Shown here in pieces: positions 6,342-56,706 of a DNA stretch of 64,000 nucleotides. Within the stretch, counting starts at the first letter, position 1. Each line of letters opens with the position of its first letter. A program made the position numbers and the translations under genes. This stretch comes from an uncultured delta proteobacterium (GTDB taxonomy: Bacteria > Desulfobacterota > Desulfomonilia > Desulfomonilales > Desulfomonilaceae). The stretch lies in NCBI GenBank assembly GCA_963789265.1, contig CAWBKB010000001.1, positions 2,527,716 through 2,591,715 of the forward strand, read 5' to 3'. The notes under the pieces are model-generated. The model had not been told where the DNA came from. It made no database searches and saw nothing but the letters and a program-made list of their open reading frames with translations.

Positions 6342-6500
6342 TTGACGGCCCATGGGCCATCTGATGTGCGTACCACCTGGAACAACCATCCCTAATTTAA
6401 CGCCAATATGTTGGAAGCTGCCGCACCAGTCTATATTCGGCGCCGGCATGCACGCCTATGAGTACAAAATTGATAACCATACAGAATCCACCTTGGCTCT

Positions 6501-15127: not shown

Positions 15128-15228
15128 GGTGGCACCTGCCGATCGCTGTACAGGCCTGAAGACAGTGAAAACGAGGCGCCGGTCTCTGAACATCCCGCAC
15201 GGGAAGCCTTCTTACGAGAGGTCTTACA

Positions 15229-23529: not shown

Positions 23530-24006
23530 ATGTCGGACCCCCTCTCGTGTTTCACCTTTCCTGTAGGAGGTATGGTTATGCTGTTCTCTTTTTGTAATCC
23601 GGCCGCTGGAGTTTCCGAACCTCCCGGTGACTTCAACAGCAATTACCGTTATCTAAAAAAACTTATTAACCAGGCCCTTAAGGAGGGGACTCCCATAGAG
23701 GACCTTAACCTGGTCCCAAGACACTGTTCCACTTCTCCGCCCAGGAAGCTCTCCCGAGAAGATCTCCTCAAGCTCCTGCACACAATCAGGAGGATCAAAA
23801 CCCGCTATCAGAGACTATTGCAGTCTCCGGTTCCCCGAGAACTGGAAAGGGACATCCTGGCGAAGTCGCCCGAACAACGTTTACCCTGGGAGAACGAGGC
23901 CCTGGAAAAGGCAGAACAGTGGCGGCTGGCCGTGAATGCCGTTCGCTCACAGGTCCAAGCGGAATTGAACGACCACCTTAAAGGGGAGTTTTTTCGCGGA
24001 CTTTGA
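23530..24006 (+). CDS. Hypothetical protein
   Basis: 158-aa ORF filling the gap; AGGAGG SD before ATG at 23572 suggests a slightly later start. Confidence 0.6.
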   Translation: MSDPLSCFTFPVGGMVMLFSFCNPAAGVSEPPGDFNSNYRYLKKLINQALKEGTPIEDLNLVPRHCSTSPPRKLSREDLLKLLHTIRRIKTRYQRLLQSPVPRELERDILAKSPEQRLPWENEALEKAEQWRLAVNAVRSQVQAELNDHLKGEFFRGL

Positions 24007-24033
24007 ACCGACCAAAGCCTTCCCAGTGACGGA

Positions 24034-25126: not shown

Positions 25127-25147
25127 CTTCTCCTCTGTTGGATCTAA

Positions 25148-39760: not shown

Positions 39761-40948
39761 TTACAAGGCCGTCCTCAGAACCTCTACGATATCCTCTTTG
39801 CTCATGGGCGGACGTCCGGGCAGGTTGCCATTCCCGTCGTGGACGACAAGCACCGCATCCTCTGCGTAGCGCGAAAACAGTTCATCACCGATGCCAAGCT
39901 CCGAAAGACGTGTGGGGCACCCAATGGAACGTAAAAAGTCTTCGAACTTATCAATACCTTCCATGGCCAGGCTGATGTCGTCTTTATCAGTCACCGATAA
40001 GCCGAAGATGCGCTGCGCGAACTGCGCAAAGCGTTCGGGACGGGCCTTGGCGGCAAAACGCATCCAGGCCGGATTGAGCACAGCCAATCCGGCTCCATGC
40101 GTGATGGCATGGTGAGCGGAGAGCGCATGCTCGATCATGTGCACCGGGGGTGTGTAGTTCGTGCCGACTTGCACCCACCCGTTAAGGGCCACAATTGATG
40201 CCCACTGCACTTGAGTGCGAGCTTCGGGGTCACGCCCGTCGGCTACTGCCTTCCGACCCCACTCTATGGCGTTGATGATGACGCCTTCGGCGAAACGGTC
40301 CTGGATTGGCGTGCCGTCGACACCGGTAAAGTACCCCTCGGTCACATGGGTGATAATGTCGCAGATGCCGTATGCGGTCTGATCTTTCGGGACGGTCAGG
40401 GTCAGTTCTGGATCGACCAGTGCGACTTTCGGAAAAAGGCAGTCGGCGACCACGAACGATTTCACTTTCGAATCGTCGTTGCTTATGACTGCGCCTTTGT
40501 TCATTTCCGAACCGGTGGCGGCCAGAGTGGGCACGGTGATGATAGGCAGGGCGTGCGTCGGGATTGCCCAGTTATCCTGTCCGTGGCCGATCATATCCCA
40601 GGGGTCACCATCATATAGGGCCGCTGCCGCGATCACCTTGGACGCGTCCATGGTACTGCCGCCGCCGAGTGCGATAACCACGTCGCAGCCTTCGTTGCGA
40701 GCCATGTCCGCGCCGCGGACCACGGAGGTGATTCGAGGATTGGGCTCGACACCGGAGCATTCCTTCACTGAAACACCAGCGTCCTTCAGACTCGCCACAG
40801 CGCGATCAAACACGCCGTTGCGCTTGATACTGCCGCCGCCGGTGACGACGAGGGCGCGATTGCCGTAGGAACGAGCCACCTCGCCTAGGCGCGATAACGT
40901 CCCAGCTCCAAAGATGATCTTCGTCGGATTTTGGAATTCGAATTCCAT
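39761..40948 (-). CDS. Iron-containing alcohol dehydrogenase (butanol dehydrogenase/YqhD-like)
   Basis: NPTKIIFG, GVEPNP, GGGSTMD, TLAATGSE, HMIEH, HGAGLA. Confidence 0.92.
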   Translation of the reverse strand: MEFEFQNPTKIIFGAGTLSRLGEVARSYGNRALVVTGGGSIKRNGVFDRAVASLKDAGVSVKECSGVEPNPRITSVVRGADMARNEGCDVVIALGGGSTMDASKVIAAAALYDGDPWDMIGHGQDNWAIPTHALPIITVPTLAATGSEMNKGAVISNDDSKVKSFVVADCLFPKVALVDPELTLTVPKDQTAYGICDIITHVTEGYFTGVDGTPIQDRFAEGVIINAIEWGRKAVADGRDPEARTQVQWASIVALNGWVQVGTNYTPPVHMIEHALSAHHAITHGAGLAVLNPAWMRFAAKARPERFAQFAQRIFGLSVTDKDDISLAMEGIDKFEDFLRSIGCPTRLSELGIGDELFSRYAEDAVLVVHDGNGNLPGRPPMSKEDIVEVLRTAL

Positions 40949-41136
40949 TATCGTCTCCTTGCTTGATGTCGTCTTGATGATCACAATCTAATCCTGATCG
41001 AATAGAACTAGGTAGCTCGATCCTGTCGGATTATTGCCTATTCGTCCGAATGGTCGAAAACGGTTGCCGGAAGAAGGTCGGGCGTGATATTTTCAGATCT
41101 GGATTCTATCTACGACAGTAGCAAGGCAGTAACCAC

Positions 41137-42269: not shown

Positions 42270-43409
42270 TTACTCGAAGTATTTATCAAGCCCCATCAGG
42301 CTGTGTAATTTTTCAAAATTTGTCCTTTTCATTCGAAACATGACGGTTGCATAACTTAACCCCTCGAAGGGTAGAGCATATCGTTCAAGTCCCGGTTCCG
42401 TGCAGATGAGGCACTCTTGATGAGTGCCGGCGGTCCTACGAAACCGGGAGGCTTGATGCGATCGGACCAGGTTTTCAAAGGACTTGTCCTGAATGTTGCC
42501 AATGGAATAGTTGATAAGCGGGCAAGGATACACATCGCCGGTGCTTCGTATAAAGAAATAGTTGAATCCAGTAGTACAGGGTTTCTCCACACTCCCTGTT
42601 CGGAAATAATTCTGCAAGACGTTTCTGTGATAGCTCCAAGGAAATAGCTCCGTGGAATAGAAACTAGCGAGTTTGTCCAAATCTTTGGCACTGAATTGTA
42701 GTTCCTCACTATGATCGAGGTTGGCGTAGCGGACCTTCGTGAGAATCCGTGGAGAAATGATGGTGAATAATTCTCGATCTTGTGCAAACATTGCGATGGA
42801 AGTCAGGTGGTCGACATTTGCGGGAACGACGGTGGTTTTGAGACCGACCACAAGGTTTGGAAAAGCACGTCGCATTCTGCGGAGGCCGTCAATCGTTTGG
42901 AGAACCTTTGGCCAGGCACCCGATACGCCGCGGATTTTTTCATGGACCTCACCGATTGCATCGACGGCAACTGCAAACACCAAATCGATATGCCTACTAT
43001 TGAGGCGATCTGCCATGACGCCGGCCTTATTCAGTATGCGCCGCGTCAACAGACCGTTCGTTGTGACAGCCACGGTTCGCAATTTGGCGTACAGATCTGG
43101 TTTGTTGTGTGAAATCGCCTCCACGAGATTGACGATATCATCACTTAGGAACGGTTCGCCGCCGGTGATGTCAATTTCTCGGAGTTGCTTCAGCTCGCTT
43201 GACGCCAGGAGTTTCAACCACTCGGAAAGGGGAAGGTCTTTAACAGTGGCAGGAATCTTCCATATATTACACATCATGCATCGAGCGATGCACCGGTGAG
43301 TGATTTCCAAGGACAGCGCTTGAATTGGACAGCTCCCACCGGTTAGCCGGGAAATACGATAGCGGAGGCCGTTTCTTGCCAGCCTCAGCAAAAGTGGCAG
43401 GCTGCTCAT
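42270..43409 (-). CDS. Radical SAM protein with SPASM/Twitch-type C-terminus, last gene of the mft cluster
   Basis: CIARCMMC, ITGGEPF, TTNG, C-terminal CTTG...GDVYPC...CLIC. Confidence 0.88.
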   Translation of the reverse strand: MSSLPLLLRLARNGLRYRISRLTGGSCPIQALSLEITHRCIARCMMCNIWKIPATVKDLPLSEWLKLLASSELKQLREIDITGGEPFLSDDIVNLVEAISHNKPDLYAKLRTVAVTTNGLLTRRILNKAGVMADRLNSRHIDLVFAVAVDAIGEVHEKIRGVSGAWPKVLQTIDGLRRMRRAFPNLVVGLKTTVVPANVDHLTSIAMFAQDRELFTIISPRILTKVRYANLDHSEELQFSAKDLDKLASFYSTELFPWSYHRNVLQNYFRTGSVEKPCTTGFNYFFIRSTGDVYPCPLINYSIGNIQDKSFENLVRSHQASRFRRTAGTHQECLICTEPGLERYALPFEGLSYATVMFRMKRTNFEKLHSLMGLDKYFE

Positions 43410-43416
43410 GCGAACC

Positions 43417-44976
43417 TCACCGGGGGGAATCCGCAGCAAGAGATCTTTGATGTTTACGTTTTACCGACAGCCCCGGAAACACGGGAGAGAAGAACTTTTC
43501 CCTGAAACAGCCGAACCACACTCCTGACTGATACGAAAGCTGCTCCAAGGAAAAAATACCCAAAAAATACAGAATATTAATGTGTGGCTTTCGACTGGAA
43601 AACTCAATTGTTCCCACTCCTAAATGTGCCAGCCATATTGCCGCGGCAGCCACCGGAAAGGCAGGTGCCAGCAAGGTGGCGATAATAAGATAATATCGGG
43701 AGACAAACGAGCAAATCTGGTACATGAAGCTAAAATAGCTGCGAAACACCGCGACCAATACCTGCATCAACGGAACCGGGATTCCCATGTCGCGCACGCT
43801 TCGCCTTCTCATGACGGCGTCGCCCAGAGCCGTCACCGCGGCAAATGCGGCCGCCACAGGTTCTGCAAAAAGTGCCGTAATCAACAGTAACCAAAAGCAT
43901 ACCGCGGCAGGCAAGAGAGCGAACGTTTTTCTTCTTGCCGGATGAAGCGCCTGCAAGAGCGGTTCGCTTGTTCCGTATTCAAACCGTCTCATGCAAAAAG
44001 CTCTCAAGCGGTTTCTGTGCCGATGCAATACTCTTGCCGAGGGACGAAATTCGATCGAGCGGTTGCTGTCCATTATTCGCCAACAGAGGTCCACATCTTC
44101 GCCTACTTCCAGGGCTTCGTTGAATCCCCCCACCTTGAGAAAAAGCTCTCGACGTACCGCAAAATTGCAGGAGGGGAGGTAAAAGAATTTGCTTTTAAGG
44201 GTAGAATCGTTGCAGCGGATTTCAACCTGGAGCGGCGATTTAACCTTTTCGTAACGATCTAGAGGCTCTGTATCATCGTATGAATCTACCAATCCCCCCG
44301 CTGCTCCCACTTGCGGATCCTCGAAGACCGATGTAATTTCCAACAGCCACATTGAGTCCACGACACAATCTGAATCCACGAAGAGCAGTGTTTCGCCATC
44401 TGCTTGCCTTGCACCACGGTTGCGGCACGCTGACGCTCCCTGCCTCTTAGTCATGCGTTCCACCCTTACGGGAAAACGACTGACCACGTCGACGGTTTCA
44501 TCCTCGGAAGCATCGTCTACCACAACGATCTGCAGCTTCTCTTTGGGGTACGCGACCTCGAGAAGAGACTCGAGACATAGCTTGATTTCCGCGGCCCTGT
44601 TGCGGACCGGGATGACAACCGAAACAGTGGCCAGTGGCTCATGCACTGTTGCGCCGTAGCTCTCCAAAAAACCCATCTTTTCAAATCGATAAAGTAAGTG
44701 GTCCAACGAAGTCTCAGCGAGCGAAGGGGTGAGCTTAACCAGATTTTCGGCCGATCGAGGGCCCAAATCTTCTAGGTGGCGGAAGATCTCAGTGAGACCT
44801 GCTCCTAATCGAAGTGCCTTAAGCGGGTAGTTCCGCAGCAGGAATGAATGAGGGACTCTTTGTACCAGTCGTACACCTGTGGCGAGCTTGTAGGTTCGGG
44901 TGCCCAATCGAGCACTGATTGTGTCAATTTTCGACCTGTCGATATGGCCCTCCATGCCAAGACTTTCCGGTGACAT
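43417..44976 (-). CDS. mftF: Mycofactocin glycosyltransferase MftF (GT2)
   Basis: VVIPVRNR, VVDDAS, FVDSDC, RYE...SPL, YLPSCN, VGEDVDLCWR, YGTSE.LL..LHP; TAATG coupling with etfB. Confidence 0.88.
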   Translation of the reverse strand: MSPESLGMEGHIDRSKIDTISARLGTRTYKLATGVRLVQRVPHSFLLRNYPLKALRLGAGLTEIFRHLEDLGPRSAENLVKLTPSLAETSLDHLLYRFEKMGFLESYGATVHEPLATVSVVIPVRNRAAEIKLCLESLLEVAYPKEKLQIVVVDDASEDETVDVVSRFPVRVERMTKRQGASACRNRGARQADGETLLFVDSDCVVDSMWLLEITSVFEDPQVGAAGGLVDSYDDTEPLDRYEKVKSPLQVEIRCNDSTLKSKFFYLPSCNFAVRRELFLKVGGFNEALEVGEDVDLCWRIMDSNRSIEFRPSARVLHRHRNRLRAFCMRRFEYGTSEPLLQALHPARRKTFALLPAAVCFWLLLITALFAEPVAAAFAAVTALGDAVMRRRSVRDMGIPVPLMQVLVAVFRSYFSFMYQICSFVSRYYLIIATLLAPAFPVAAAAIWLAHLGVGTIEFSSRKPHINILYFLGIFSLEQLSYQSGVWFGCFREKFFSPVFPGLSVKRKHQRSLAADSPR

Positions 44977-45839
44977 TACAACAGACCTTTGTCCTTCAGG
45001 AATTGAATCATGCTGCGTGCAAGGTCGCCAGGTTCGGCTTCCAGCAGAGCCCCATCCTTTTTTGCCTCGTCCCGGGAGAGTAGAAGCCTGATGCGCTCCA
45101 CCGCGGGAAGTTCGCTGTCGGGAACGGGAATCCATTTCGGCCGCGGCTTGGGCTCTGTCACCCGACCTAGTCTCACCGCCGGGATGAGGTCGGCGCTTTC
45201 AAGAGACAGATCTTCGCCGTTCCAAGTAATAATCTCTTTATCGGCCGCTTTCAGCATGTCCCGATGGCTCGGATAGCGGGGCTCGCACAAGGTCCTTTCC
45301 ACGCCGACAACAGCAGGCAATGCGCATTCCAGTTCCTGTAACCGACCTCTGCCTAAACTACGCCGGACAAGCATTGTTTTTGAATTTGAGGACAGGTTCA
45401 ATCGCACAGTGGATGACAGATAGGGGTAATCAAGGTTGGAGGCCAAATAGCACCCCACTTGTCCTTGGGCCAGATCGAGAGAACGGGCCCCGCATAAGAC
45501 CAAATCAGCCGAAATTTTCCGAACGGCTTTGCTTAACACTAGAGCTGTCGTTCGGGCGTCTATAACACTCCATTCGGAATCATAAAGGTGAACCAGTTTG
45601 TCTCCGCCAATGGCCAGGGCCCGTCGAGCTTCTTTGTCGAAGAATTCCGGACCGGCCGACAGGATCCACACTTCGCCTCCTACGGCGTCTTTCAACTGTA
45701 CGGCTCTTTCAAGGGCCACCTCGTCCAGCGGGTTATTCAGGCGAACAATGTCATGGGCGGCAACAAAGTTTTTGTCAGGACAGAGTCCACTCCTGGCATA
45801 AACAAAGCTGATCTGCTTCAAACAAACTGCGATCCTCAT
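44976..45839 (-). CDS. etfB: Electron transfer flavoprotein beta subunit (mycofactocin-associated)
   Basis: IAVCLKQ, NPLDEVALE.A, ALAIG.D, DLVLCG.RS.D, LPAVV, PRYP. Confidence 0.9.
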   Translation of the reverse strand: MRIAVCLKQISFVYARSGLCPDKNFVAAHDIVRLNNPLDEVALERAVQLKDAVGGEVWILSAGPEFFDKEARRALAIGGDKLVHLYDSEWSVIDARTTALVLSKAVRKISADLVLCGARSLDLAQGQVGCYLASNLDYPYLSSTVRLNLSSNSKTMLVRRSLGRGRLQELECALPAVVGVERTLCEPRYPSHRDMLKAADKEIITWNGEDLSLESADLIPAVRLGRVTEPKPRPKWIPVPDSELPAVERIRLLLSRDEAKKDGALLEAEPGDLARSMIQFLKDKGLL

Positions 45840-45959
45840 AGGAATGATCTCAACGCCTCCCGCACGAATTTGATTCCAAACAATGAATCGTCCCTTTACT
45901 CCAGCATGGGAGCGCCTTAGACGTCAGATTTCTGATACTCACTCGGAAAGCTACAGGGA

Positions 45960-46125
45960 TTCTCGAAAGTAATCACAAGAATGAATGATTTGATGGTGAC
46001 GGGAATTTTGCTTGGTGGGGATGGGCATCTTGCCCGTCCTTCCCAATAGACAGGCTAGAAGCCTGTCCCACCAATCTAAATCTGGTGCCGAGATGCATCA
46101 TGCACAATGACAACTTTTTCGAGAA
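45960..46125. repeat. Miniature inverted-repeat element with REP doublet inside the mft operon
   Basis: Ends TTCTCGAAA / TTTCGAGAA; internal TTGGTGGGGATGGGCATCTTGCCCGTC...GACAGGCTAGAAGCCTGTCCCACCAA, related to the hairpins at 9243-9350. Confidence 0.65.
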
Positions 46126-46138
46126 CCTCCTTGCACGA

Positions 46139-48709
46139 TCAACGGGTGACCATCTCCACAATCTCGATCACGTCTAAAACCGTTTGCGGTCCAGGACTCA
46201 CCTCGCCTAGGCCATCCTCTATCATTGCCACACAATAAGGACAGGACGTGCTGACCACCTCCGCGGCAGTTTCAGCGCATTGTTTCGCCCTGAGCACGTT
46301 GATTCTACTACCAGTTTCATGAAGCCACATTCGGCCGCCACCTGCTCCGCAGCAAAAAGTGCTGTCCGCTGTGTTGGGCATTTCTTTCAGCCGAGAGTCG
46401 CATACAAGCCCGAGTATTGCCCTTGGGAAATCCGCGAGCCTGTTGACGCGGGAAAGGTAGCACGGATCGTGATATGTCAACTGCTTGCTGAACTGCCTTT
46501 TGGGCCTCAAGAGACCGTTTTGCAGGAGCGATGCAGTCCATTCAACAGCGTGGATTACCCTGAAGTCAGCCCCGAAATCGGGATATTCGTGAGCAAGAGT
46601 GTTGAAGCAATGAGGGCACAGAGTGACAATCCTCTTGACTCCTTGAACTTTGAAGCGCTCCATGTTTCTCTGAACCAATTCCTGAAAAAGAGCTTCCTGC
46701 CCGAGTCGCCGAACGGGGTCGCCACAGCAATTTTCTTGTTCGCCGAGAATCTCCATCCGTTGTCCGGCCCTATTTGCAAGCGCGATGAAAGCCTTTGCCA
46801 CCTCGCGAGCCCGAGGATGAAAAGAAGCCTGACAACCCACCCAGAAAAGAAAATCCTCTTTATCGCCGCCCTCCACAAAATTCTTTTCTAGGCTTTTTGC
46901 CCATATTGTCCTTGAAGCACGACCATATCCAAAAGGATCGCCGTAAACGTCGATGTTTCTCAGGAGTTTTATCGCTTCGGGCGGGACTTTGCCCTGTTCC
47001 AGCACCAATCCGCGGCGTAAATTCATCAGCTTGTTCACATGTTCTACCCCCACGGGGCAAGAACTCTCACACGCGTGACAGCTTGTACACGCCCATATTT
47101 CCTCTTCGGAGATATATTGTGACACAAGCTCCTGACTTCGCGATGTGCTGCCTTTTCGCCTCGTCTCCAGCGCACAGTTACCGATCTCTTGAATTATCTT
47201 CATGGGGTTCAGGGGCTTTTGAGAAGCGTACGCCGGGCAAGAGTCGCGGCATTGGCCGCAACTAACACATGCCTCCGTGTCCAGGAGGTCTTTCCAGGTC
47301 AGATCGTTTGCGGTCGTTATGCCCAGCGGCTGCTCCGAATTCGTACAGCATGGTACCAGTTTCCCGGCAGGTCCCAGCCTGTGAAAAAACAAGTTGAGCG
47401 GCGCAGTAAAAATGTGGCGCAGCGGACTGAACGGCATAGCGGCTAACAGGGCAAAAACCAGGCCGAAGTGAACATACCAGGCTATGGCGATCGCCGCTGG
47501 GGACGGGGGCAAGACGGCAGCCAGTGCCCAACCGACCGGATGGCGCCAGATATCTGATTCCGGAGCGATGGAGATTCGGAATCCTTCGGTCAGGAAGCCC
47601 GTGAGCACTATGAGAACCAGTATGACGAGCACCGTCAATCCAGCAAGTCCTGTTGAAGGAGATGCGTCTAAAGGCTGAAACCGTCTCCGTAGGGCATAGA
47701 CAACCCCGCCCAGCAGAGCGAGCCCGACAATCTCCAGGAACAGAGATGCAAACCCGGCGGCAAGTGCGGGAACAGGAGGATCGAATTGCAGAGCCAGTAC
47801 GATCAAGCCCGGTATCAGTACACCCAAGAATATAAAATAATGACTGAATCCAACGCTAGGACGGCGAAAGACCCTTCGCTGGCCTATGGTGGCCCACCAC
47901 AGAGCAACGAGTCTCCGCCCGGGTTTGTCCCACCGTCTGAGGGATCTGCCTGACATCCAGAAAAGGAGGCGATTCACCCACCCCCAAAAAAATACCACGA
48001 TACAGCATCCCAGAAACAGCGGGTATGCCAACGTCCAAATCGTTGCGGAATCGGATGCAGTCTGCCATCTGGTGGGGTGCGGGGCCCCTATGAGAAAGCG
48101 GGAGCCTGGGCTGGAATTGTGACATTTCGTACATAAAACCCCGGCTGGCGGACTCGATTCTCGATGAGCGACGTGCTTGAAGTGACAGGAAAGGCACTGA
48201 TATCTCGAATACGGTCTGCTGGCGTCTGCCTTTCCGTGGGCTGTGATGCGAAAAACCCACAGAGACTTCAACAAGGACCCGGCGCCTATCTGTTCCGGGT
48301 GGCAGCGGCCGCACGTTGCAGCGATCCGCTTAGGATTGAGCGTCGAGAGGGGGTTTTCCGGAGGGAGCACGTTGTGCCCGCCGTGACAGACTGCACATGA
48401 AACCGGTTGGCCCATTCTCCTCGGGTGAGAGCTGACCTCGGAATGGCAGTCACCACAGACGGCGGCCGAAACGGCTTGGCTCTTCTGATGCGCCTGAGTG
48501 GCCGCAGTCGGATGACACGACAAGCAAGAAACATTTCGGCCATGAACCGAGGACCGGAGGGTGTCGATGTTAATTTCAAACTTACTCTTGCCGCTCCCGG
48601 CCAGATGACACGCGAGGCATTCTTGATCGTTTCTGGCGGCATAGGACACCAGGCAACAGAACTCTACGGCCATCACGACACACGCCAAGCACAAGCATCT
48701 CCAGTTCAT
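46139..48709 (-). CDS. Fusion: heptaheme cytochrome c + NarI-like cytochrome b membrane domain + 2x[4Fe-4S] + two CCG domains (FadF/HdrD/EMO-like)
   Basis: Signal-like N-terminus; CLACH, CLSCH, CGDCH, CAVCH, CGRCH, CLSCH, CTKCH; about 6 TM helices with His; CVSCGQCRDSCP, CTSCHACESSCP; NCCG..CPHC, HDPC..FCCGAGGG..CPYC. Confidence 0.88.
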   Translation of the reverse strand: MNWRCLCLACVVMAVEFCCLVSYAARNDQECLACHLAGSGKSKFEINIDTLRSSVHGRNVSCLSCHPTAATQAHQKSQAVSAAVCGDCHSEVSSHPRRMGQPVSCAVCHGGHNVLPPENPLSTLNPKRIAATCGRCHPEQIGAGSLLKSLWVFRITAHGKADASRPYSRYQCLSCHFKHVAHRESSPPAGVLCTKCHNSSPGSRFLIGAPHPTRWQTASDSATIWTLAYPLFLGCCIVVFFWGWVNRLLFWMSGRSLRRWDKPGRRLVALWWATIGQRRVFRRPSVGFSHYFIFLGVLIPGLIVLALQFDPPVPALAAGFASLFLEIVGLALLGGVVYALRRRFQPLDASPSTGLAGLTVLVILVLIVLTGFLTEGFRISIAPESDIWRHPVGWALAAVLPPSPAAIAIAWYVHFGLVFALLAAMPFSPLRHIFTAPLNLFFHRLGPAGKLVPCCTNSEQPLGITTANDLTWKDLLDTEACVSCGQCRDSCPAYASQKPLNPMKIIQEIGNCALETRRKGSTSRSQELVSQYISEEEIWACTSCHACESSCPVGVEHVNKLMNLRRGLVLEQGKVPPEAIKLLRNIDVYGDPFGYGRASRTIWAKSLEKNFVEGGDKEDFLFWVGCQASFHPRAREVAKAFIALANRAGQRMEILGEQENCCGDPVRRLGQEALFQELVQRNMERFKVQGVKRIVTLCPHCFNTLAHEYPDFGADFRVIHAVEWTASLLQNGLLRPKRQFSKQLTYHDPCYLSRVNRLADFPRAILGLVCDSRLKEMPNTADSTFCCGAGGGRMWLHETGSRINVLRAKQCAETAAEVVSTSCPYCVAMIEDGLGEVSPGPQTVLDVIEIVEMVTR

Positions 48710-49755
48710 GAGCCTTGCCTCTCAAATTCTTGGGCGTCGTGCTTGTCCTGTTCGAGCAGCCTTAGCAGTTGAACTAGAACATCTCTTCCGTATCCGACCA
48801 GGCCCAAATCGGAAAACCGGAATATCCTAGCCTGAGGATCTTTGTTTATTGCCACTATAGTCTGCGCTTCTTCTATCCCGGTTGTGAACTCGTTTGCTCC
48901 GGAAATTCCCCATGCGAATAGAAGTCTAGGGGAAACCGTTGTGCCGGTCTGTCCGATTTGTCGCTCAAACGGTAACAGACCCGAGTCCACCACCGGTCTG
49001 GTCCCTGCCATAACGCCGCGAAAGATGTTTCTTAGTTCGTGCAGTTGTGGCAAGTCCTCGGGGGCCATTCCCCGCCCGAATGCAATGACTGTTTCCGCCT
49101 CCCCAAGAGTCACAGCTTCGGGATCTTCCTGAATGACTCGCAGCAATTTCACTCGATCCGATTTCGGAGCAGATAAGGGATCAATCTGAACCAACTGTGC
49201 GCTTCGATCGGGCTCCGGTCGAAAGCGGCTTAGAGCCTCGGGGTCCCAGCATAGCACCGAGACGCCTAGGCCGGACAGAAATACGTGCTGGTGCAGTCTG
49301 CCTCCTTGAATTGACTGCACGGCCCGGATGCCGGCTGTCGGATCCCATTGAGCGTCGGTGCAGTTCGAGACCAGAGGCGAATCGAGCTCTACAGCTACAC
49401 GAGGAGAGAGATCGGCTGCCCATCCACTTCCTGCGAATGCGACCACCGCGACATTGACTTGCCGCGCCAGTCCGGCCACGGTTTCTGCCACACATTCAGG
49501 CAGGCTGGAGCTTGGGTCAGAGGGGCAACGATAAACAACGCTTGCACCGAATTGCCCCAAAACCGAAGCGGCATTGTTCTCGGGGCCAAATATCAGGGCC
49601 TTCACCCCGTCCGCAGCGTGCGGAAATAACGGGTAATTTCGAGAGTGCGCCACTAATGCCACCGAGGCAGGGGTTACCTGTCCCGCTTGGGTCTCGCACA
49701 CGACAAGAACGCCTTTGGCTTCCGGCGACGTAGCCTCCGGCATGTTCTCAGCCAT
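48706..49755 (-). CDS. etfA: Electron transfer flavoprotein alpha subunit
   Basis: FGRGM, GTRPVVD.G, QIGQTG..VSP, GISGA, IVAINKDP.A.IF. Confidence 0.9.
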   Translation of the reverse strand: MAENMPEATSPEAKGVLVVCETQAGQVTPASVALVAHSRNYPLFPHAADGVKALIFGPENNAASVLGQFGASVVYRCPSDPSSSLPECVAETVAGLARQVNVAVVAFAGSGWAADLSPRVAVELDSPLVSNCTDAQWDPTAGIRAVQSIQGGRLHQHVFLSGLGVSVLCWDPEALSRFRPEPDRSAQLVQIDPLSAPKSDRVKLLRVIQEDPEAVTLGEAETVIAFGRGMAPEDLPQLHELRNIFRGVMAGTRPVVDSGLLPFERQIGQTGTTVSPRLLFAWGISGANEFTTGIEEAQTIVAINKDPQARIFRFSDLGLVGYGRDVLVQLLRLLEQDKHDAQEFERQGS

Positions 49756-51716
49756 TATATTATTCTTCCGATCATCCGGCCTTCCAATATGGCTGAATCA
49801 AGCTTGCGGGGCGCAACGCAGTCCCCGATTCTGTACAACTCGTTCACTTTCCCTTTAAGTGAAAAGTACAAGTGGTCCACTGATTGATTTCTCGCTGCAA
49901 ACACAATGTTGTCGTGATCAGCAAACTCCAGAAATTCGCCTGAATAAACTTGCACACATTTGATGACCGTTCCCTGTATTTCCAGGACAGCCACATCATT
50001 GGTGAATGTCACGTTCTTGAGTGCCAGGCGCCGCCGAGACAAGTGGAAATCCTGCAGAGGGCCGAGGTTGCTCCCGATAGAGAGGGACGGCGTGAGAATG
50101 TGAACTTTCTTTCCTCTATCGGCCAGGAATTCAGCGGTAGCGTTACAACCGTGATGCCCGTCCATGTCCACGATGACCACCCGTTCACCCAAATTCACCT
50201 CTTCATTGAGCACCTGCCATAGGTTTACCGCCGTGGGCGGCCCGTATTCGCCGGGAAAGGGCTTCTCTGGGGGGGTCGAACCGGCGGCAACTACAACCGC
50301 GTCGGGATTTTGATCCAGCACCATTTGATCGGTTGCAGCAGTCAGAAGCCGCAACTCGATGTTGGCAAGCTTCGAAACCTGGCCAATCAGCCATCGGCTG
50401 ACGCCTTCTATTTCCGACCGGCCCGTTGCCTTGCTTGCTATCAGGATTTGGCCCCCCGGTTTTGCACCCTTTTCGAAAAGGATCACCGAGTGGCCTCGTA
50501 AGGCCAACACTCGTGCCGCTTCCAGACCGGCAGGACCAGCCCCTACGACCACAACTTTTTTGGCGCGATCCGCGGGCGAGAGGGTATCCGATCCGAGCTC
50601 TCCTTCTCGTCCCACTGCGGGGTTCTGAATGCAGCTCAAACCGTGCCCAAGCCCCATGCGACCGATGCACCCCTGATTGTCGGCTACGCAATGTCTTATG
50701 TCACCCGTACGGCCTTCTCTGGCCTTGTTGGGCAAATCGGGATCGCAAATCAAAGCTCTTACCATCCCGATCATATCTGCATGACCGTCCGCGAGTATTC
50801 GTTCAGCCAGATGAGGATCGTTGATGCGATTCGTGGCAAAAACCGGGAGCGTAACGCCGCTCTTTATGGTGGAGGCCAAAGGAACCGTGTAAGCTAAAGG
50901 TGTGTGCATGGAACCTTCTACGAGGTAGAGATTGTAAAAAGTCGCAATGCTCAGATCCACGAAGTCTATGAGGCCGGTGGCTTCCAGCCTTCTGGCTATC
51001 TCCGCCGCGTCCTTGACGGTGAGCCCGCCGCGCGGATGCATTTCATCGGCATTCAGCCGCACTCCCACGGTGAAATCGCTCCCTGTTGCTCTTCTAACTG
51101 CCTCAATCACCTCGCGACAGAAACGAAATCTGCCGTCGAGATTGCCGCCGTATTCGTCCTCTCTGCGATTGGTGAGTGGTGAGAGAAACTGCCTGATCAG
51201 CGAGCTATGCCCAATCTGAATCTCGATTCCGTCAAATCCCCCTTCGCGACAATGCTTAGCGGCTCCAGCGAAAGAGCGTACGCACTCCTCGATCTCTTCC
51301 AGTTCCATCTCTTTGCACCACTCACGAAATATGGGATCGAATGTCTGTGAAGGTCCCCATACTGCCTTCCGAGTGAAGCTCCCATCCCCCTGAGAGCCGT
51401 TATGGTTGAGCTGGGCAAAAATCTTGGTTTCGTACCGGTGGATAGTTTGTGTAAGCCGTTTAAAGCCGGGAATTACATCAGGGGCAAAAGCGAAAACCAA
51501 TTCTTCGTAAGGATGGTCCGAGGGGTGAACCGAAAGCTCCTCGGTTACAATGAGACCGGCCCCGCCTCTGGCCCTCTCGCGATAATAGTAGACGTGCTTT
51601 TCGCTTATTTTGTTGTTCTCTCCAAAGTTAGTCAGATGAGCGGAAAAGCTGATTCTGTTTGCGACCACCACAGAGCCCAGTCTGAGAGGCGAGAACAAGA
51701 GCTTGAATTCAGCCAT
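49755..51716 (-). CDS. FadH/OYE-family flavin-FeS oxidoreductase 2 (mycofactocin system)
   Basis: NRISFSAHLTNF, GGAGLIVTEELSVHPSDHPYE, SLIRQFLSPLTNRR.D.YGG, RALICDP, VGAGPAGLEAA. Confidence 0.9.
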   Translation of the reverse strand: MAEFKLLFSPLRLGSVVVANRISFSAHLTNFGENNKISEKHVYYYRERARGGAGLIVTEELSVHPSDHPYEELVFAFAPDVIPGFKRLTQTIHRYETKIFAQLNHNGSQGDGSFTRKAVWGPSQTFDPIFREWCKEMELEEIEECVRSFAGAAKHCREGGFDGIEIQIGHSSLIRQFLSPLTNRREDEYGGNLDGRFRFCREVIEAVRRATGSDFTVGVRLNADEMHPRGGLTVKDAAEIARRLEATGLIDFVDLSIATFYNLYLVEGSMHTPLAYTVPLASTIKSGVTLPVFATNRINDPHLAERILADGHADMIGMVRALICDPDLPNKAREGRTGDIRHCVADNQGCIGRMGLGHGLSCIQNPAVGREGELGSDTLSPADRAKKVVVVGAGPAGLEAARVLALRGHSVILFEKGAKPGGQILIASKATGRSEIEGVSRWLIGQVSKLANIELRLLTAATDQMVLDQNPDAVVVAAGSTPPEKPFPGEYGPPTAVNLWQVLNEEVNLGERVVIVDMDGHHGCNATAEFLADRGKKVHILTPSLSIGSNLGPLQDFHLSRRRLALKNVTFTNDVAVLEIQGTVIKCVQVYSGEFLEFADHDNIVFAARNQSVDHLYFSLKGKVNELYRIGDCVAPRKLDSAILEGRMIGRII

Positions 51717-51742: not shown

Positions 51743-53695
51743 TCAGATAGCACGTGCAATCGTGTAGCCATCCATAATGGCTGTGTCGATTTTTCGAGGT
51801 GCAACGCAGTCACCGACTTTATAGAGGGCCGGTACTCTGCCTTTCAGTTCTCGGTAGAGCCTGTCTTCGCACACATTGCCGAGAGCCAAGACGATGGTGT
51901 CATAATCTGCTGTTTCAGAAATCTGTTCCGTGAACTTGTCTGCCACTACGGCGCGAGTACCCCGAATCTCCAGGACCACTGTATCAGGGATAAACCGGAC
52001 GCCCTTCTTGAGCAATCTTTGTCGGATCAAGAACAGGTCACCGATCGGAGCCAGATCCATGCCCACGAAAGGTTCGCCGGTCATGATGTCCACATTTCTA
52101 TTCCTGTCTGCCAGGAACTCCGCGGTGGAAAGAGCTCTGTAATGCCCGTCTTCATCCACGAGAAGAACTTTTTGGCCGATCTGATAGGTGCCTTTGAGCA
52201 CATCCCACACATTCAAAACCGTTGGTGGGCCGTATTTTCCTCTGACAGGGCGCGGATCAGGATACGATCCGGTCGCCACAATAACCACGTCAGGAGACAA
52301 GTCTATTACCGTAGCTGCGTCGAGAGGAGATCGAGTCAAAACAGTGACCCGCCATTTCTCCAGTTGTCTGGTCAGATTCTCGATTACGCCCCAGATTTCA
52401 CTTCGGCCCGGACCTATCCTTGCCAGTCGCAGTTGGCCACCGGGCTCATTTTCGCTCTCGTATACGGTAACATGATGCCCTCGTTTGGCTGCTGTAAGGG
52501 CCGACTCGAGGCCCGCGGGCCCGGCGCCGACGACAATGACCCGTTTGCTCGAAGTTCCAGTAGAGCTGTGCTCGCCGAGACCGAAAGTCTCTCTTCCTGC
52601 TCGCGGATTCAGAATGCAGGAGATCGGTTTGATTTGGGCGACCTTGCCCACACAGTTCTGATTGTCCGAGACGCAGTAAACGATCTCGTCAATTTTGCCT
52701 TCATACAATTTCCGCGGAAGCCAAGGATCGCAGATCAAGGGTCTGACCCAACCTACAAGATCCGCCTTGCCCTGCTTCAGCGCTTCCTCAACCCGCTCCG
52801 GAATGGGCATCCTGTTTCCGGCGAAAACAGGCACGGAAACAGCCTGCTTCAGCGTGGACACCATGTCCAAAGTCAGGGCCATAGGGTGGTGCATGGATGC
52901 CCTGGCCTGATGGAAGTTGTAATAGGTTCCGACAGTCGTGTTGAAAAAATCAACCAAGCCGAGAGATTCCAATTCCCGGGCAGCATTGAGAGAGTCCTCG
53001 AGCGTCAGCGCATTCCAGAACATTTCGTCCAGACAAAGCCTGATTCCCACGGGAAAGCCCGTTCCTACCGCTTGTTTCACACCCTGGAGCACTTCCTCAG
53101 TGAGCTTCATTCTTCCCTGGAAATTGACGCCGTAGCGGTCTTGCCGGTGATTGGTGAGCGGCGAGAGAAACTGCCGCAGGAGACTATCTTCGCCGACGTC
53201 TATCTCTAACCCGTCAAATCCTGCCTGTTCGAGGGAGGTTGCTGCTCGTGAAAATGACGCAACGAGCTCCTCGAAATCGCTGTTTTCCATGGCTTTGCAC
53301 ATCTCGCCATGGGCTATGTCGGCCGTAGGCTCCGGCCCCCAGATAGGCATCCTGCTTATTACGCCTTGACTTTGAAACCCGCGGTGAGTGAGCTGTGCGA
53401 AGACCAGTGAATTCTGCTCATGAATCCGCTCTGCCAGCTTTTCGAGCCGCGGTGTCTCACTACCTCGATGCAGGTGAATCATTTTCTCGTAAGGTCGATC
53501 GTTCGGGTGGATGCTGAATTCACCGACGATTACGAGGCCGCAACCGCCTTTGGCCCTTTCAGCATAATAGGCGATCAGCGCATCGCTAATTGTTCCTTTT
53601 CCTGCGAGATTGGTTCGATGGGCGCAAAAGGCAACCCGGTTGCGGACGCGAGCACGTCCAAGATTCAAAGGCGACAACAGCGTCTCAAACCGCAT
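51743..53695 (-). CDS. FadH/OYE-family flavin-FeS oxidoreductase 1 (mycofactocin system)
   Basis: NRVAFCAHRTNL, SIHPNDRPYE, SLLRQFLSPLTN.R.D.YG, RPLICDP, VGAGPAGLESA; paralog of the neighbour. Confidence 0.9.
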   Translation of the reverse strand: MRFETLLSPLNLGRARVRNRVAFCAHRTNLAGKGTISDALIAYYAERAKGGCGLVIVGEFSIHPNDRPYEKMIHLHRGSETPRLEKLAERIHEQNSLVFAQLTHRGFQSQGVISRMPIWGPEPTADIAHGEMCKAMENSDFEELVASFSRAATSLEQAGFDGLEIDVGEDSLLRQFLSPLTNHRQDRYGVNFQGRMKLTEEVLQGVKQAVGTGFPVGIRLCLDEMFWNALTLEDSLNAARELESLGLVDFFNTTVGTYYNFHQARASMHHPMALTLDMVSTLKQAVSVPVFAGNRMPIPERVEEALKQGKADLVGWVRPLICDPWLPRKLYEGKIDEIVYCVSDNQNCVGKVAQIKPISCILNPRAGRETFGLGEHSSTGTSSKRVIVVGAGPAGLESALTAAKRGHHVTVYESENEPGGQLRLARIGPGRSEIWGVIENLTRQLEKWRVTVLTRSPLDAATVIDLSPDVVIVATGSYPDPRPVRGKYGPPTVLNVWDVLKGTYQIGQKVLLVDEDGHYRALSTAEFLADRNRNVDIMTGEPFVGMDLAPIGDLFLIRQRLLKKGVRFIPDTVVLEIRGTRAVVADKFTEQISETADYDTIVLALGNVCEDRLYRELKGRVPALYKVGDCVAPRKIDTAIMDGYTIARAI

Positions 53696-54725
53696 GCTCT
53701 GCGCCCCGCACATTTTGTGAACTTTGGCATTGCACCAGGCATTCCGGATCGGCCAACCCCAATTCGCCGTGGCCATGGTAAGCCACGGCCGGACAGCCGC
53801 CCCGGCATGTCTCAAACCGGAAGCAGGTCTCGCATGACTTGACGTTCATCCCGCGGAATGTGGCAAAAATGTTCGAACGCAGCCAGATTTCGCGGAACTT
53901 GAGATCGCGTACATTACCGGCGAGGAATTCTGGCTCTTGCAAGAACGCACATGGATAGACGGAACCATCCGGAGAGAGGCAACAGGTCAGCTTTGCGGCT
54001 CCGCAGATATCAAGGCCCATTCTGCGCCTCTTTTCGGATGTCAGGCTGAAGAAAGAGTCGCCGGTCAACACCTGGCAGTGTTGATTCAGCCAGTGAGAAA
54101 AACCCTCGAGCTGATCTGCGTCAGGCGCCATCTCCTCCTGGCAATCTTTGCCTCTGCCGGAGGGACGAAATCTGCTGATTCTCAAGTTCGTACCCATGTC
54201 TCGGGCCATAGCATTGAGCGTGTCTATTTGAGGAAAGCTCCATCTGGTCAGGACAGTGTTTATGCTGAACTTGATCCCCTGCATAGCCAGGTTTTCTACG
54301 GCCTTACGTATCTGCCGGTACGTCCCTCTTCCGCGGATCCGATCGTTTGTGGCCTCGTCCGCCCCATCCAAGCTGACCTGCAAGTAGAGACCTTCTATTT
54401 CTGCGAGCTCCCGGCACGTTTCCTTGTCGAAGAAGGTCCCGTTGGAGCTGACGCATGAAACTATGCCAAGCCGTTCCGCAGCACGAAGGATTTGAAAGAT
54501 GTCGGGCCGTAGAAAAGGTTCGCCGCCTCCAAAATTAATTTGGAAGACCTGGAGTTTCGCAAGTTCACTCAACACATTGAGGGCTTCTTGCGTGGAAAGC
54601 TCATTCCGCAAGGGCTCGCCCGCATTCGACAGACAGTGTCTGCACTTCAGATTGCACCGCAGTGAAACTTCCCACGTCACGTTGACGGGCGCGGAGAGTC
54701 CTTCACGTGCCAGCCTTGCAAGCAT
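53685..54725 (-). CDS. mftC: Mycofactocin radical SAM maturase MftC
   Basis: APVNVTWE, CNLKCRHCLS, FQINFGGGEP, QVSLDGA, SRFRPSGRG, VLTGDSFF, CGA.KL.C...P.G.VYPCAF, C..C.....CRGGCPA. Confidence 0.95.
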   Translation of the reverse strand: MLARLAREGLSAPVNVTWEVSLRCNLKCRHCLSNAGEPLRNELSTQEALNVLSELAKLQVFQINFGGGEPFLRPDIFQILRAAERLGIVSCVSSNGTFFDKETCRELAEIEGLYLQVSLDGADEATNDRIRGRGTYRQIRKAVENLAMQGIKFSINTVLTRWSFPQIDTLNAMARDMGTNLRISRFRPSGRGKDCQEEMAPDADQLEGFSHWLNQHCQVLTGDSFFSLTSEKRRRMGLDICGAAKLTCCLSPDGSVYPCAFLQEPEFLAGNVRDLKFREIWLRSNIFATFRGMNVKSCETCFRFETCRGGCPAVAYHGHGELGLADPECLVQCQSSQNVRGAEHAV

Positions 54726-55002
54726 GCACTACTCCTTTTCTTTCCAAACGTTCCAGCGCCCTTTCCAGAGCCTTGACAATCTCCCGGCTTACGTTTCTTA
54801 TTTTACACCATCGTGCCGGGCTTTGTCTTGATGCAAAGAATTGCGGAGTAAGCAAGTCGCCCGATGATAGGAAATAGAGGCGCGGCCCATTGCGATCGTA
54901 AAAAAGGAGTCCCGAGCGCTCGTTTCTCACCCGCACATTAGGGGCTAGCACATAAGCCGGTGCGGGTCCCTCCAGCGACTCAGTACACACCGCAAATTCC
55001 AT
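54703..55002 (-). CDS. mftB: Mycofactocin RRE chaperone MftB (start uncertain, overlaps mftA end)
   Basis: Y.LAPNVRVRNE..GLLFY....PRLYFL; C-terminal ALERL..KG; lies between mftA and mftC. Confidence 0.85.
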   Translation of the reverse strand: MEFAVCTESLEGPAPAYVLAPNVRVRNERSGLLFYDRNGPRLYFLSSGDLLTPQFFASRQSPARWCKIRNVSREIVKALERALERLERKGVVHACKAGT

Positions 55003-55120
55003 CTATGGCTACCTCTTCGATGTCAATTTCGGTGAAGGTCAGATCCTCCTTTTCTGCCTGGCCATCGGCACGTTCATCTGTATTCGTATGCTCAGGTATG
55101 GTTTGTTCGGTTTGTTCCAT
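54980..55120 (-). CDS. mftA: Mycofactocin precursor peptide MftA (46 aa)
   Basis: Manual translation MEQTEQTIPEHTNTDERADGQAEKEDLTFTEIDIEEVAIDGICGVY*; SD AGAGG; canonical IDGxCGVY terminus. Confidence 0.96.
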   Translation of the reverse strand: MEQTEQTIPEHTNTDERADGQAEKEDLTFTEIDIEEVAIDGICGVY

Positions 55121-55441: not shown

Positions 55442-56653
55442 TCAGATACAGGATCGCATAATCTCCTTGATCTGTTCAGGGGTGATGTCGCGAGGATTGG
55501 CTTCCCGCGAGAGATCGTTACTCGCCCATTTAGCCGTGTGCTCGATGTCGGCTTCGGAAAAATCAAAGGTGCTCAGCGGGACCTGTGGAATGCCCACATC
55601 ATTGCGGAGCCGTTCGATCTCTTCCAGGGTTTTCTCCGCGGCGTGGACCGGGTGCATGTGCCCCACATCCAGGCCCATGGCCTGACCGATTTCCTTGAAA
55701 CGTTCCGGGACGGCCACCACGTTGAAGCGTTCCACCGGAATCATCATGATCGCGTTTGTGTACCCATGATGAAGATCCTTGATTACTGACAACATGTGTG
55801 CGGTTCCGTGAACCATACCCATGCCTCCACCCATGTTGTAGGCCATGGAGGCAATGAACTGTGCCCAGGCCATGTTTTCAATGGCCACATCGTTGAACGG
55901 GTTAGCGTAGGCCTGGCGAATATTCTCGCTAAGGAGCTTGATGGCACGGAGGCCGACAGCATGCACGTGAGGCATATTGAACCGGCCGATGGTCGGCTCC
56001 ATAGCGTGACAGAATGCATCCATGCCCGCCCAGGCAATCATGTTCGGGGGCTGTAGCCTCATGAAGAGGGGATCGTTAATACCCACTGAGGGCCCCACTC
56101 CAGGGACCACGAGGATTAGCTTGTAGACCCACTCTACGTCATTGATGATTGCAAAGGCCGTACCCTCCGCCCCGGTGCCCGTGGTCGTATTGATTGCCAC
56201 GTGGGGGATTTGCACAATCTTGTATGTGGGTATGCGGGTAGTGTAATGCGGATCAAGGAAAGCGCAAAACTGCCTGAGGTCGGTGTCCGGTCCTTCATTG
56301 GTCATCATAATGCGAATGCCCTTGCCCGCGTCGTGGGCGCTCCCACCCCCGACTGAGACAATGCCGTCACACCCTGCCTCCTGGTAGACCTTGGCCCCGG
56401 CCTTGCATTCGTAGTCCTTGGGATTAGAGGTAACCCCGTCGAAAAGTGTCACAGCCACGCCGGCCGCCTTGAGTACTCCTTCGACCTCTTCAACGATGCC
56501 TGTCCCTCTCAGCCCGGTGGTGACCAGTAGGGCGTGCTTAATGGCGTAGGCCTGGCATTCTACGCCTGCCATTGTATGCGCACCCCAGCCCACAATCCCG
56601 CGTGAGTGTTGGTGTACATAAAGCAGTGGGAATTGCTTGCGTTCGAAGTTCAT
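55442..56653 (-). CDS. Group III (Fe-containing) alcohol dehydrogenase, Mno/Mdo nicotinoprotein-like
   Basis: TTGLRGTGIV, SNPKDY, GGGSAHDAGKG.RI, HVAINTT.GTG.E, HHG..NAI resemble NDMA-dependent methanol dehydrogenases; directly upstream of mftA. Confidence 0.8.
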   Translation of the reverse strand: MNFERKQFPLLYVHQHSRGIVGWGAHTMAGVECQAYAIKHALLVTTGLRGTGIVEEVEGVLKAAGVAVTLFDGVTSNPKDYECKAGAKVYQEAGCDGIVSVGGGSAHDAGKGIRIMMTNEGPDTDLRQFCAFLDPHYTTRIPTYKIVQIPHVAINTTTGTGAEGTAFAIINDVEWVYKLILVVPGVGPSVGINDPLFMRLQPPNMIAWAGMDAFCHAMEPTIGRFNMPHVHAVGLRAIKLLSENIRQAYANPFNDVAIENMAWAQFIASMAYNMGGGMGMVHGTAHMLSVIKDLHHGYTNAIMMIPVERFNVVAVPERFKEIGQAMGLDVGHMHPVHAAEKTLEEIERLRNDVGIPQVPLSTFDFSEADIEHTAKWASNDLSREANPRDITPEQIKEIMRSCI

Positions 56654-56706
56654 CGTATTACTCCTTTTCTGACAGAGGCGCGGCCAGTACCTCTTGTCTC
56701 GAGCCT

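Follow-up and report, generated by a model that had tools for sequence, protein, structure and literature searches.

A putative heptaheme cytochrome c-EMO fusion protein encoded in a mycofactocin operon of an uncultured delta proteobacterium

The DNA examined here is a stretch of 64,000 nucleotides from an uncultured delta proteobacterium of the family Desulfomonilaceae (contig CAWBKB010000001.1), referred to below as the window. On its minus strand, an open reading frame (ORF) with an ATG start (46139..48709) encodes a protein of 856 amino acids (aa), designated P0001, that combines seven heme c-binding (CxxCH) motifs with the features of a membrane-bound oxidoreductase for electron transfer flavoprotein (ETF). 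The gene resides among genes of the mycofactocin system, and the locus raises the question of where such a protein might deliver electrons derived from mycofactocin. In mycobacteria, mycofactocinol is re-oxidised by MftG, a GMC flavoprotein that passes the electrons to the respiratory chain (eLife 2025). MftG is missing from approximately 25% of the genomes that carry MftC, and what replaces it there is stated to be open (eLife 2025).

On balance, we lean towards a reading in which P0001 is an ETF:(methyl)menaquinone oxidoreductase (EMO) with an added periplasmic heptaheme cytochrome c domain, which re-oxidises mycofactocin-derived reducing equivalents in place of MftG. The two proteins would share the same proposed role, the transfer of mycofactocin electrons to the respiratory chain, although they are unrelated. 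The cytoplasmic EMO/HdrD motifs, five predicted transmembrane (TM) helices with three candidate His ligands, and the position of the predicted heme c domain ahead of the first helix (TM-I) can be read from the sequence. Heme attachment, electron transfer between hemes b and c, the direction of that transfer, and mycofactocin as the source of electrons are what homology and gene order suggest.

Architecture of the fusion protein

The protein begins with MNWR and 20 mainly hydrophobic residues that end at SYA (aa 1-24; 48638..48709), a stretch that by sequence and hydropathy looks like a Sec signal. A putative heptaheme cytochrome c domain follows (aa 25-219; 48053..48637; like all parts of the ORF, on the minus strand), which is delimited by its motifs, by alignments, and by Pfam matches to Cytochrome_C7, Paired_CXXCH and Cytochrom_c3_2 across aa 25-198. 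Its CxxCH motifs start at aa 31, 62, 85, 105, 133, 172 and 193. Seven further conserved His residues (56, 74, 95, 112, 158, 182 and 211) provide one candidate distal ligand for each heme, which matches the expectation for bis-His coordination. Thus, the features by which a multiheme cytochrome c is recognized, namely a signal-like N-terminus, the CxxCH motifs and an equal number of additional conserved His residues, all appear to be present in P0001. An eighth CxxCH sequence (aa 541) was considered and rejected as a heme site because it falls within the second ferredoxin motif, CTSCHACESSCP.

The remainder of the chain comprises three domains. A NarI/EMO-type membrane domain spans aa 220-441 (47387..48052), as defined by the Pfam family Nitrate_red_gam (PF02665; aa 294-442, 30.9 bits against a cut-off of 22.9) and by DSSP analysis of an AlphaFold2 model. 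An HdrC-like domain (aa 472-571; 46997..47296) carries CxxCxxCxxxCP motifs at aa 481 and 541 and matches Fer4_8 (aa 479-555), Fer4_9 and Fer4_10. The C-terminal HdrB-like domain, which is of the non-cubane-cluster (CCG) type (aa 596-856; 46142..46924), has CCG motifs at aa 661 and 786, matches the Pfam CCG family twice (108.7 bits), and is also recognized by alignment and Foldseek comparison with a solved EMO. No NCBIfam model reached its cut-off on P0001, the best being TfrB with 177 bits versus 385. These observations bear out an earlier note on this DNA, made from the sequence alone, which had described an 856-aa ORF at this position with a signal-like N-terminus, seven CxxCH motifs, a multi-TM domain containing His residues, two ferredoxin motifs and two CCG domains, and had left the strand unstated.

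The C-terminal 610 aa belong to the EMO family, whose members are also called EtfD. The top solved relative is EtfD/EMO from M. smegmatis (PDB 9OJN), with a phmmer E-value of 7.6e-87 for chain 9OJN_A and an alignment of the CCG part that covers aa 533-843. Foldseek comparison of the P0001 model with 9OJN gave an E-value of 1.4e-28 and 28% identity over 711 columns, and the next structural matches were HdrB chains and NarI. The AlphaFold2 model of the whole protein has a mean pLDDT of 62, with values below 50 in the heme domain, and it was used for helix boundaries and for the Foldseek match of the EMO part only. P0001 shares with EMO proteins the five-TM NarI-like domain with three His residues for hemes b, two cubane motifs, two CCG motifs, and a gene that adjoins etfA and etfB. 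It differs from them by approximately 220 extra N-terminal residues, which hold the signal-like sequence and the seven CxxCH motifs, and by the location of its gene in a mycofactocin operon rather than in a fatty-acid oxidation context.

A topology for the fusion can be proposed by comparison with the EMO of S. aciditrophicus (SaEMO). That protein spans the membrane with five TM helices, its N-terminus being periplasmic and its C-terminus cytoplasmic; two His residues ligate heme bP, a third holds the distal twin heme, and all three are conserved across EMO-like domains (Kosian and co-workers, 2026 preprint). Its HdrC-like domain carries two cubane clusters, its HdrB-like domain carries two non-cubane clusters that take electrons from ETF, and a quinone site, with E22 and H109 among its residues, has been modelled next to the distal hemes at the periplasmic face (Kosian preprint 2026). 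In P0001, five helices are predicted from the AlphaFold2 model by DSSP (approximately aa 220-252, 284-307, 315-344, 355-381 and 404-427). The combined count of Lys and Arg is 10 for loop I-II, 0 for loop II-III and 2 for loop III-IV, and this concentration of basic residues in the loops predicted to be cytoplasmic fits the EMO topology. Because the heme c domain precedes TM-I and the N-terminus of the solved EMO is periplasmic, this domain is predicted to lie on the periplasmic side, beside the position of the distal heme. The cytoplasm-to-periplasm arrangement put forward in the earlier note therefore holds as a prediction, and a cytoplasmic heme domain, which that note had named as a refuting case, is not predicted.

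The candidate ligands for hemes b are His290, His414 and His432, which are invariant in 11 aligned fused sequences. A wider comparison finds them in no fewer than 12 of 13 fused sequences and in 80% or more of 106 unfused relatives (a count from which P0002, P0003, P0014 and P0026 were omitted as short). These residues probably correspond to the three conserved heme ligands of EMO, as matched to SaEMO by description rather than residue by residue. Few positions distinguish the fused forms from unfused EMO proteins (Tyr229, Pro300, Arg412 and His797). P0001 may accept electrons from EtfAB and reduce (methyl)menaquinone as EMO proteins do; the genes etfA and etfB adjoin the fusion gene both in the window and in a second locus, L001, that is described below. 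Complex prediction for the two ETF subunits together with the CCG domain (aa 596-856) returned a score of 0.01 and a mark of 0.32, and was counted neither for nor against this pairing.

Recurrence of the fusion and relatives of its heme domain

A search of 5.8 billion proteins yielded 892 matches among 8000 scored candidates. Among the best 120 of these 892 matches, seven N-terminal CxxCH motifs are present in just 10 (P0001 and P0004-P0012; 836-871 aa, 37-48% identity), and the spacing of the motifs is nearly identical among them. This distribution agrees with the earlier claim that EMO-type proteins normally carry no heme c domain. Further fused members were found by other routes: P0138 (852 aa) and a truncated form, P0126 (521 aa), came from a HMMER pass with aa 1-250; P0316 (859 aa) has six of the seven heme motifs; and the L001 ORF (858 aa), which is 40% identical to P0001, came from a genome scan. 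In all, 14 fused sequences were collected (P0001 and 13 others at 29-48% identity), every one of them derived from a metagenome or a metagenome-assembled genome (MAG).

The seven CxxCH motifs and His56, 74, 112, 158, 182 and 211 are invariant in alignments of the fused forms, and His95 is invariant after stand-alone relatives of the heme domain are added. Since heme motifs and additional His residues remain invariant or nearly so at 30-48% identity, the fused build is beyond chance. Two CCG motifs are likewise present in all 12 fused sequences checked. A FastTree phylogeny of 121 EMO-like proteins (658 columns; fragment P0003 omitted) divides the fused forms between one subclade of 9 tips and another of 6, both of which have 100% local support. 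The join of these subclades has a support of only 29, and a single origin of the fusion is possible. Nested within the subclades are three shorter sequences (P0002, P0014 and P0026), of which P0026 begins inside TM-I and P0002 just after it; these short members resemble incomplete or disrupted calls of the fused gene.

Several additional collections were surveyed. A profile search for longer proteins recovered only six fused sequences, with crowding among the candidates. In a plasmid collection, 63 records match the protein, none of them over 80% of P0001, and the 25 that were listed match from aa 411 onward only. A genome scan with four N-terminal query sequences returned at least 79 loci, with two narrow patterns and without the window's own genome among them. 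The fused type accounts for one of 79 loci among the genome-scan matches listed (L001), and no CCG motif was found in 10 of the listed loci whose ORFs were picked anew. The architecture is rare, at 14 sequences found, rather than common and already characterised, which the earlier note had allowed for as a second refuting case. The literature searched, of which the supplementary phylogeny of NCB domains in the EMO preprint was not a part, held no description of a fusion between a heptaheme cytochrome c and an EMO. The individual modules, and multi-subunit complexes that contain the same three kinds of module, are already known.

Relatives of the heme domain were sought separately. A HMMER pass with aa 1-250 of P0001 against 1.84 billion representatives gave 1269 matches at E ≤ 0.001, and the best 150 were sorted. 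They comprise three fused EMO forms (P0008, P0138 and the truncated P0126), 25 stand-alone proteins (195-293 aa) that share the seven motifs, 36 longer multiheme proteins with at least four TM helices, and 86 proteins that were left unclassified. Most of the stand-alone heptaheme proteins longer than 240 aa have one C-terminal TM helix and a short tail, which is basic in the eight that were read. Those of approximately 246-293 aa (P0125, P0127 and P0132, for example) share with P0001 the CxxCH motifs and additional His residues, are colinear with it over aa ~8-248, and have a single terminal TM helix, but the chain ends shortly after that helix in a basic tail, and the EMO part is absent. As a side observation, these stand-alone cytochromes (within P0124-P0244) could be a split form of the fused system.

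A second group of relatives carries a different type of cytochrome b. A word-based search with aa 1-250 returned 46 matches besides the query, all of them multiheme cytochromes and most of them CbcL-like with PF01292. None of these 46 matches has a CCG or NarI-type domain, and the known fused relatives were not returned by this search. Similarly, a PF01292 cytochrome b lies behind 9-19 hemes in six of the eight other genome-scan loci scanned with Pfam. We take the PF01292 multiheme loci to encode the CbcL kind of inner-membrane cytochrome, a name that we apply in the light of published abstracts. CbcL itself has nine hemes and a HydC/FdnI-type domain. P0001 resembles proteins of this type in that a homologous multiheme domain is fused to a heme b-containing membrane domain in a single chain. 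However, it has seven hemes rather than 9-19 and adds a cytoplasmic iron-sulfur (FeS)/CCG module, and we rejected a CbcL-like assignment because its membrane domain is PF02665 and has no match to PF01292.

The relatives of the heme domain are periplasmic domains of membrane cytochromes; the closest are the heptaheme cytochromes that stand alone with a membrane anchor, along with the multiheme region of CbcL-like cytochrome bc fusions. An AlphaFold2 model of aa 1-260, built with the 25 stand-alone relatives, has a mean pLDDT of 70. Foldseek found no significant match for this model in the PDB (best MtrA, 6r2q_A, E 0.48), and so no solved multiheme fold can be named for the domain. The anchor helix of the stand-alone cytochromes has the same orientation as TM-I of EMO. 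The simplest history would be one in which a membrane-anchored heptaheme cytochrome was joined to an EMO via its anchor helix.

The mycofactocin operon and a possible electron path

The fusion gene lies between an etfA-like gene (48706-49755; Pfam ETF_alpha and ETF), which overlaps its start by four bases, and an etfB-like gene (44976-45839; Pfam ETF), which is located 300 bases downstream. This placement and the surrounding mycofactocin genes are as the earlier note had them. All genes of the operon are on the minus strand and are described here in the order of transcription, beginning with the mycofactocin genes. The precursor peptide encoded by mftA (54980-55120; 46 aa) ends in IDGICGVY; we take this C-terminus, or GVY, as the mark of MftA. 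A probable mftB (54703-55002; 99 aa) is recognized by its location between mftA and mftC and by its resemblance to the L001 ORF in the same place, and it has no family match at the thresholds used. The radical SAM maturase gene mftC (53685-54725) matches TIGR03962 with 332.5 bits, above the cut-off of 265.

Two genes of the FadH/OYE family are located between mftC and etfA. The first (51743-53815) encodes a paralogue that scores 712 bits with TIGR03997, under the cut-off of 793; its alignment starts at aa 46, and the true start is probably ~45 codons inside the ORF. The second (49755-51716) encodes mycofactocin-system FadH/OYE family oxidoreductase 2, with 857.9 bits for the same model. Downstream of etfB are the glycosyltransferase gene mftF (43417-45135; TIGR03965, 350 bits against a cut-off of 280), which aligns from aa 86 and whose true start is probably near 44880, and finally a second radical SAM/SPASM gene (42270-43439; Pfam Radical_SAM and SPASM), for which no NCBIfam match rose above cut-off. 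The presence of mftA with its C-terminal GVY, mftB, mftC and mftF in one cluster assigns the locus to the mycofactocin system, and the stop/start overlaps at the OYE/etfA and etfA/fusion junctions suggest one transcription unit. In the gap between the fusion gene and etfB (45840-46138), neither a promoter-like site nor any Rfam family above chance was found, and the strand of the gene showed no terminator. By their nearest structures, EtfB is near the non-bifurcating 1O94, and EtfA is near the bifurcating 5OL2 and 6FAH. Among the ORFs of the window that were scanned with Pfam and NCBIfam, a GMC-type MftG was not found.

Transcription of the operon would begin with genes for an aldehyde dehydrogenase (56707-58188) and an iron-type alcohol dehydrogenase (55442-56710; Pfam Fe-ADH). 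The latter contains TSNPKDYE, and the stretch TSNPKDYEVH has been tied to mycofactocin-linked iron alcohol dehydrogenases (Haft 2011, PMC3023750). Two further genes for iron-type alcohol dehydrogenases lie elsewhere in the window (2503-3666 and 39761-40984; TSNPKDYE was checked in the operon copy only). The three copies recall the multiple copies reported for Geobacter and Pelotomaculum (Haft 2011, PMC3023750).

A corresponding operon is present in L001, a MAG contig from an uncultured delta proteobacterium. Its genes are, in order, a Zn-type alcohol dehydrogenase (nearest to the NDMA-dependent family), mftA, mftB, mftC, two FadH/OYE genes in tandem (4968-6908 and 6913-8877), etfA, the fusion gene, etfB, mftF, a radical SAM/SPASM gene (14991-16142), and a gene for a short-chain dehydrogenase/reductase (nearest to the mycofactocin-coupled families). 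The mftA product has 49 aa and again ends in IDGICGVY. Thus, the order mftA-mftB-mftC-OYE-OYE-etfA-fusion-etfB-mftF-radical SAM is common to both loci, and the two fused genes with readable context (two of two) are located in the same mycofactocin operon. The fusion gene and etfB are separated by 19 bases in L001 versus 300 non-coding bases in the window. In L001, mftC appears as two overlapping ORFs (3895-4957; 166 and 220 aa), which reflects a frameshift or a sequencing error. Because the module is found between mftC and mftF, beside two FadH/OYE flavoenzymes, in two genomes whose fusion proteins are 40% identical, a function in mycofactocin re-oxidation is likely. The names of NCBIfam models already tie ETF and OYE families to mycofactocin, and no paper that links mycofactocin with ETF was found in the literature searched.

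An electron path can be proposed from these components. Electrons would pass from an alcohol or aldehyde dehydrogenase to mycofactocinol, and from there through an OYE-type flavoenzyme and ETF to P0001. Reduced EtfAB would bind at the CCG domain in the way seen in the solved complex of EMO with ETF, and the electrons would then move from cluster FeS4 to FeS1, heme bP, the distal heme b and the seven bis-His c hemes. From the c hemes, electrons could go on to acceptors in the periplasm, whether or not menaquinone takes part at the distal site. By its motifs, the chain is expected to hold approximately 14 redox centres, namely four FeS clusters, two or three hemes b and seven hemes c. If the membrane potential assists the outward flow of electrons, low-potential periplasmic cytochromes would come within reach. 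Such a step would parallel the proton-motive-force-driven step proposed for EMO, a recently solved enzyme that has been discussed as a quinone-coupled reverse redox loop (Kosian preprint 2026), but it would make a quinone unnecessary.

We regard as a tentative possibility the strongest form of this proposal, in which a single chain with all of these redox centres provides a quinone-independent, membrane-potential-assisted exit for mycofactocin electrons, delivered by OYE-type flavoenzymes and a dedicated ETF, to periplasmic cytochromes, and is thereby an anaerobic counterpart of MftG. If it were true, this would add a new type of reverse electron transport, one that could serve to produce hydrogen or formate or could support extracellular electron transfer. 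The operon offers a concrete candidate route, from OYE flavoenzymes through ETF to a membrane protein, by which mycofactocin could be re-oxidised without MftG. In addition, a natural EMO with a heme c chain on the side of its distal hemes would permit a test of whether these hemes can pass electrons to proteins rather than to quinone. Because P0001 packs functions of the multi-subunit Tmc, Hmc and Dsr complexes into one chain, it should also be a convenient object for structural and electrochemical study.

Alternative readings and remaining features of the window

Several observations weigh against a role for P0001 in the outward re-oxidation of mycofactocin. Heme attachment and cofactor content are predictions from motifs, and the OYE-type enzymes as a link between mycofactocinol and ETF are a guess. 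The models of the heme domain are of low to moderate confidence (pLDDT below 50 in the whole-protein model and a mean of 70 for the domain with its relatives), such that distances among the c hemes and between hemes c and b cannot be judged from them. The best NCBIfam matches of the ETF subunits are the mycofactocin-associated models, but at scores under their cut-offs: EtfA reaches 120.5 bits with mft_etfA (NF038209; cut-off 240) and EtfB reaches 101.2 bits with mft_etfB (TIGR04503; cut-off 200), and the L001 subunits are similar (124.6 and 102.8, also under the cut-offs). Neither mftD nor mftE was found among the window ORFs scanned, and a second radical SAM/SPASM gene follows mftF in both loci, so that mycofactocin may be matured differently here than in mycobacteria. 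No more than two of the 14 fused sequences have a known gene context. For the closest relative (81% identity), a frameshifted fragment (P0121) with out-of-frame sequence on its flanks is all that is seen of the heme region, and the protein as called (P0002, from a Desulfomonilaceae bacterium) starts past TM-I. This state may reflect gene decay or an assembly error; the heme domain may accordingly be dispensable, or that assembly may be faulty. Finally, relatives of the FadH/OYE enzymes, such as BaiCD and bilirubin reductase, bear reductase names, and an inward flow of electrons fits them equally well.

Inward flow is the alternative that survives best, although we judge it rather unlikely. The path would be the same but would run as in Tmc and Hmc, with hydrogen or formate feeding the c hemes by way of periplasmic cytochromes, and with electrons then crossing by way of hemes b and the FeS clusters to reach ETF and, beyond it, the FadH/OYE enzymes. 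These enzymes would then reduce an enoate-type substrate or mycofactocin, and energy would be conserved in a manner like the enoyl-CoA respiration of S. aciditrophicus. In addition to the reductase names of the nearest OYE relatives, this direction is favoured by the statement that EMO also works forward during growth on crotonate (Kosian preprint 2026, introduction). Moreover, TmcABCD, HmcABCDEF and DsrMKJOP of sulfate reducers join the same kinds of module, a periplasmic c cytochrome, a membrane cytochrome b and a cytoplasmic CCG FeS protein, and they are described as carrying periplasmic electrons inward.

The likeness to these complexes has limits. They consist of several polypeptides, whereas P0001 is a single chain, and their CCG subunits are reported to act on DsrC, whereas the neighbour of P0001 is ETF. 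CCG subunits of the Tmc, Hmc and DsrMK type are described as having a single CCG motif, together with a conserved cysteine that lies in T/GECGH. By contrast, each of the 12 fused sequences checked carries two CCG motifs and lacks ECG in the CCG domain, which rules out membership of P0001 in the Tmc/DsrK type and counts against the inward reading. Its NCBIfam scores are 80.1 versus 735 for TmcB, 85.1 versus 750 for HmcF, and 58.2 versus 400 for DsrK. The operon itself, with its genes for the biosynthesis of mycofactocin and for a mycofactocin-linked type of dehydrogenase, points to a donor side. A single protein in which hemes c and a CCG domain likewise occur together has been reported from HotSeep-1 (Ca. 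Desulfofervidus) (Murali et al. 2023). It differs, in a comparison made by description only, in that it is encoded with HdrA and has been proposed to reduce DsrC or ferredoxin.

A further alternative is that P0001 acts chiefly as an ETF:menaquinone oxidoreductase, with the c-heme branch adding a menaquinol:cytochrome c activity like that of CbcL to form a three-way junction. This arrangement is compatible with the re-oxidation of mycofactocin through P0001, and as a separate reading we find it unlikely. The homology of the heme domain to the multiheme part of PF01292 cytochrome b proteins speaks for it, as do an abstract in which CbcL is termed a menaquinone oxidase and the quinone site modelled beside the distal hemes of SaEMO (Kosian preprint 2026). 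However, a few residues near the distal His differ consistently from those of unfused EMO proteins (Arg412 in place of Trp, and Tyr229).

Least probable by far is that the fusion is an artefact of an assembly indel or a mis-called gene, or that the heme domain is a decaying relic; the state of the closest relative and the short N-termini of two other clade members (P0014 and P0026) would fit this, but 13 other sequences from different sources have an unbroken frame with near-identical motif spacing, and the heme motifs are invariant at 30-48% identity. This recurrence, together with the conserved motifs, rules out the assembly artefact that the earlier note had named as a further refuting case for the fusion in the window.

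Two other regions of the window were noted. A gene for an MqsA-type antitoxin (19075-19545) and a gene of the phage integrase family (26469-27611) flank a group of ORFs without family matches (23530-26161), and the region between them may be a small mobile island. At 6501-8449, two genes encode LUD-domain proteins, one of which also has a 4Fe-4S dicluster domain; these proteins resemble LutB and LutC and are unrelated to the fusion.

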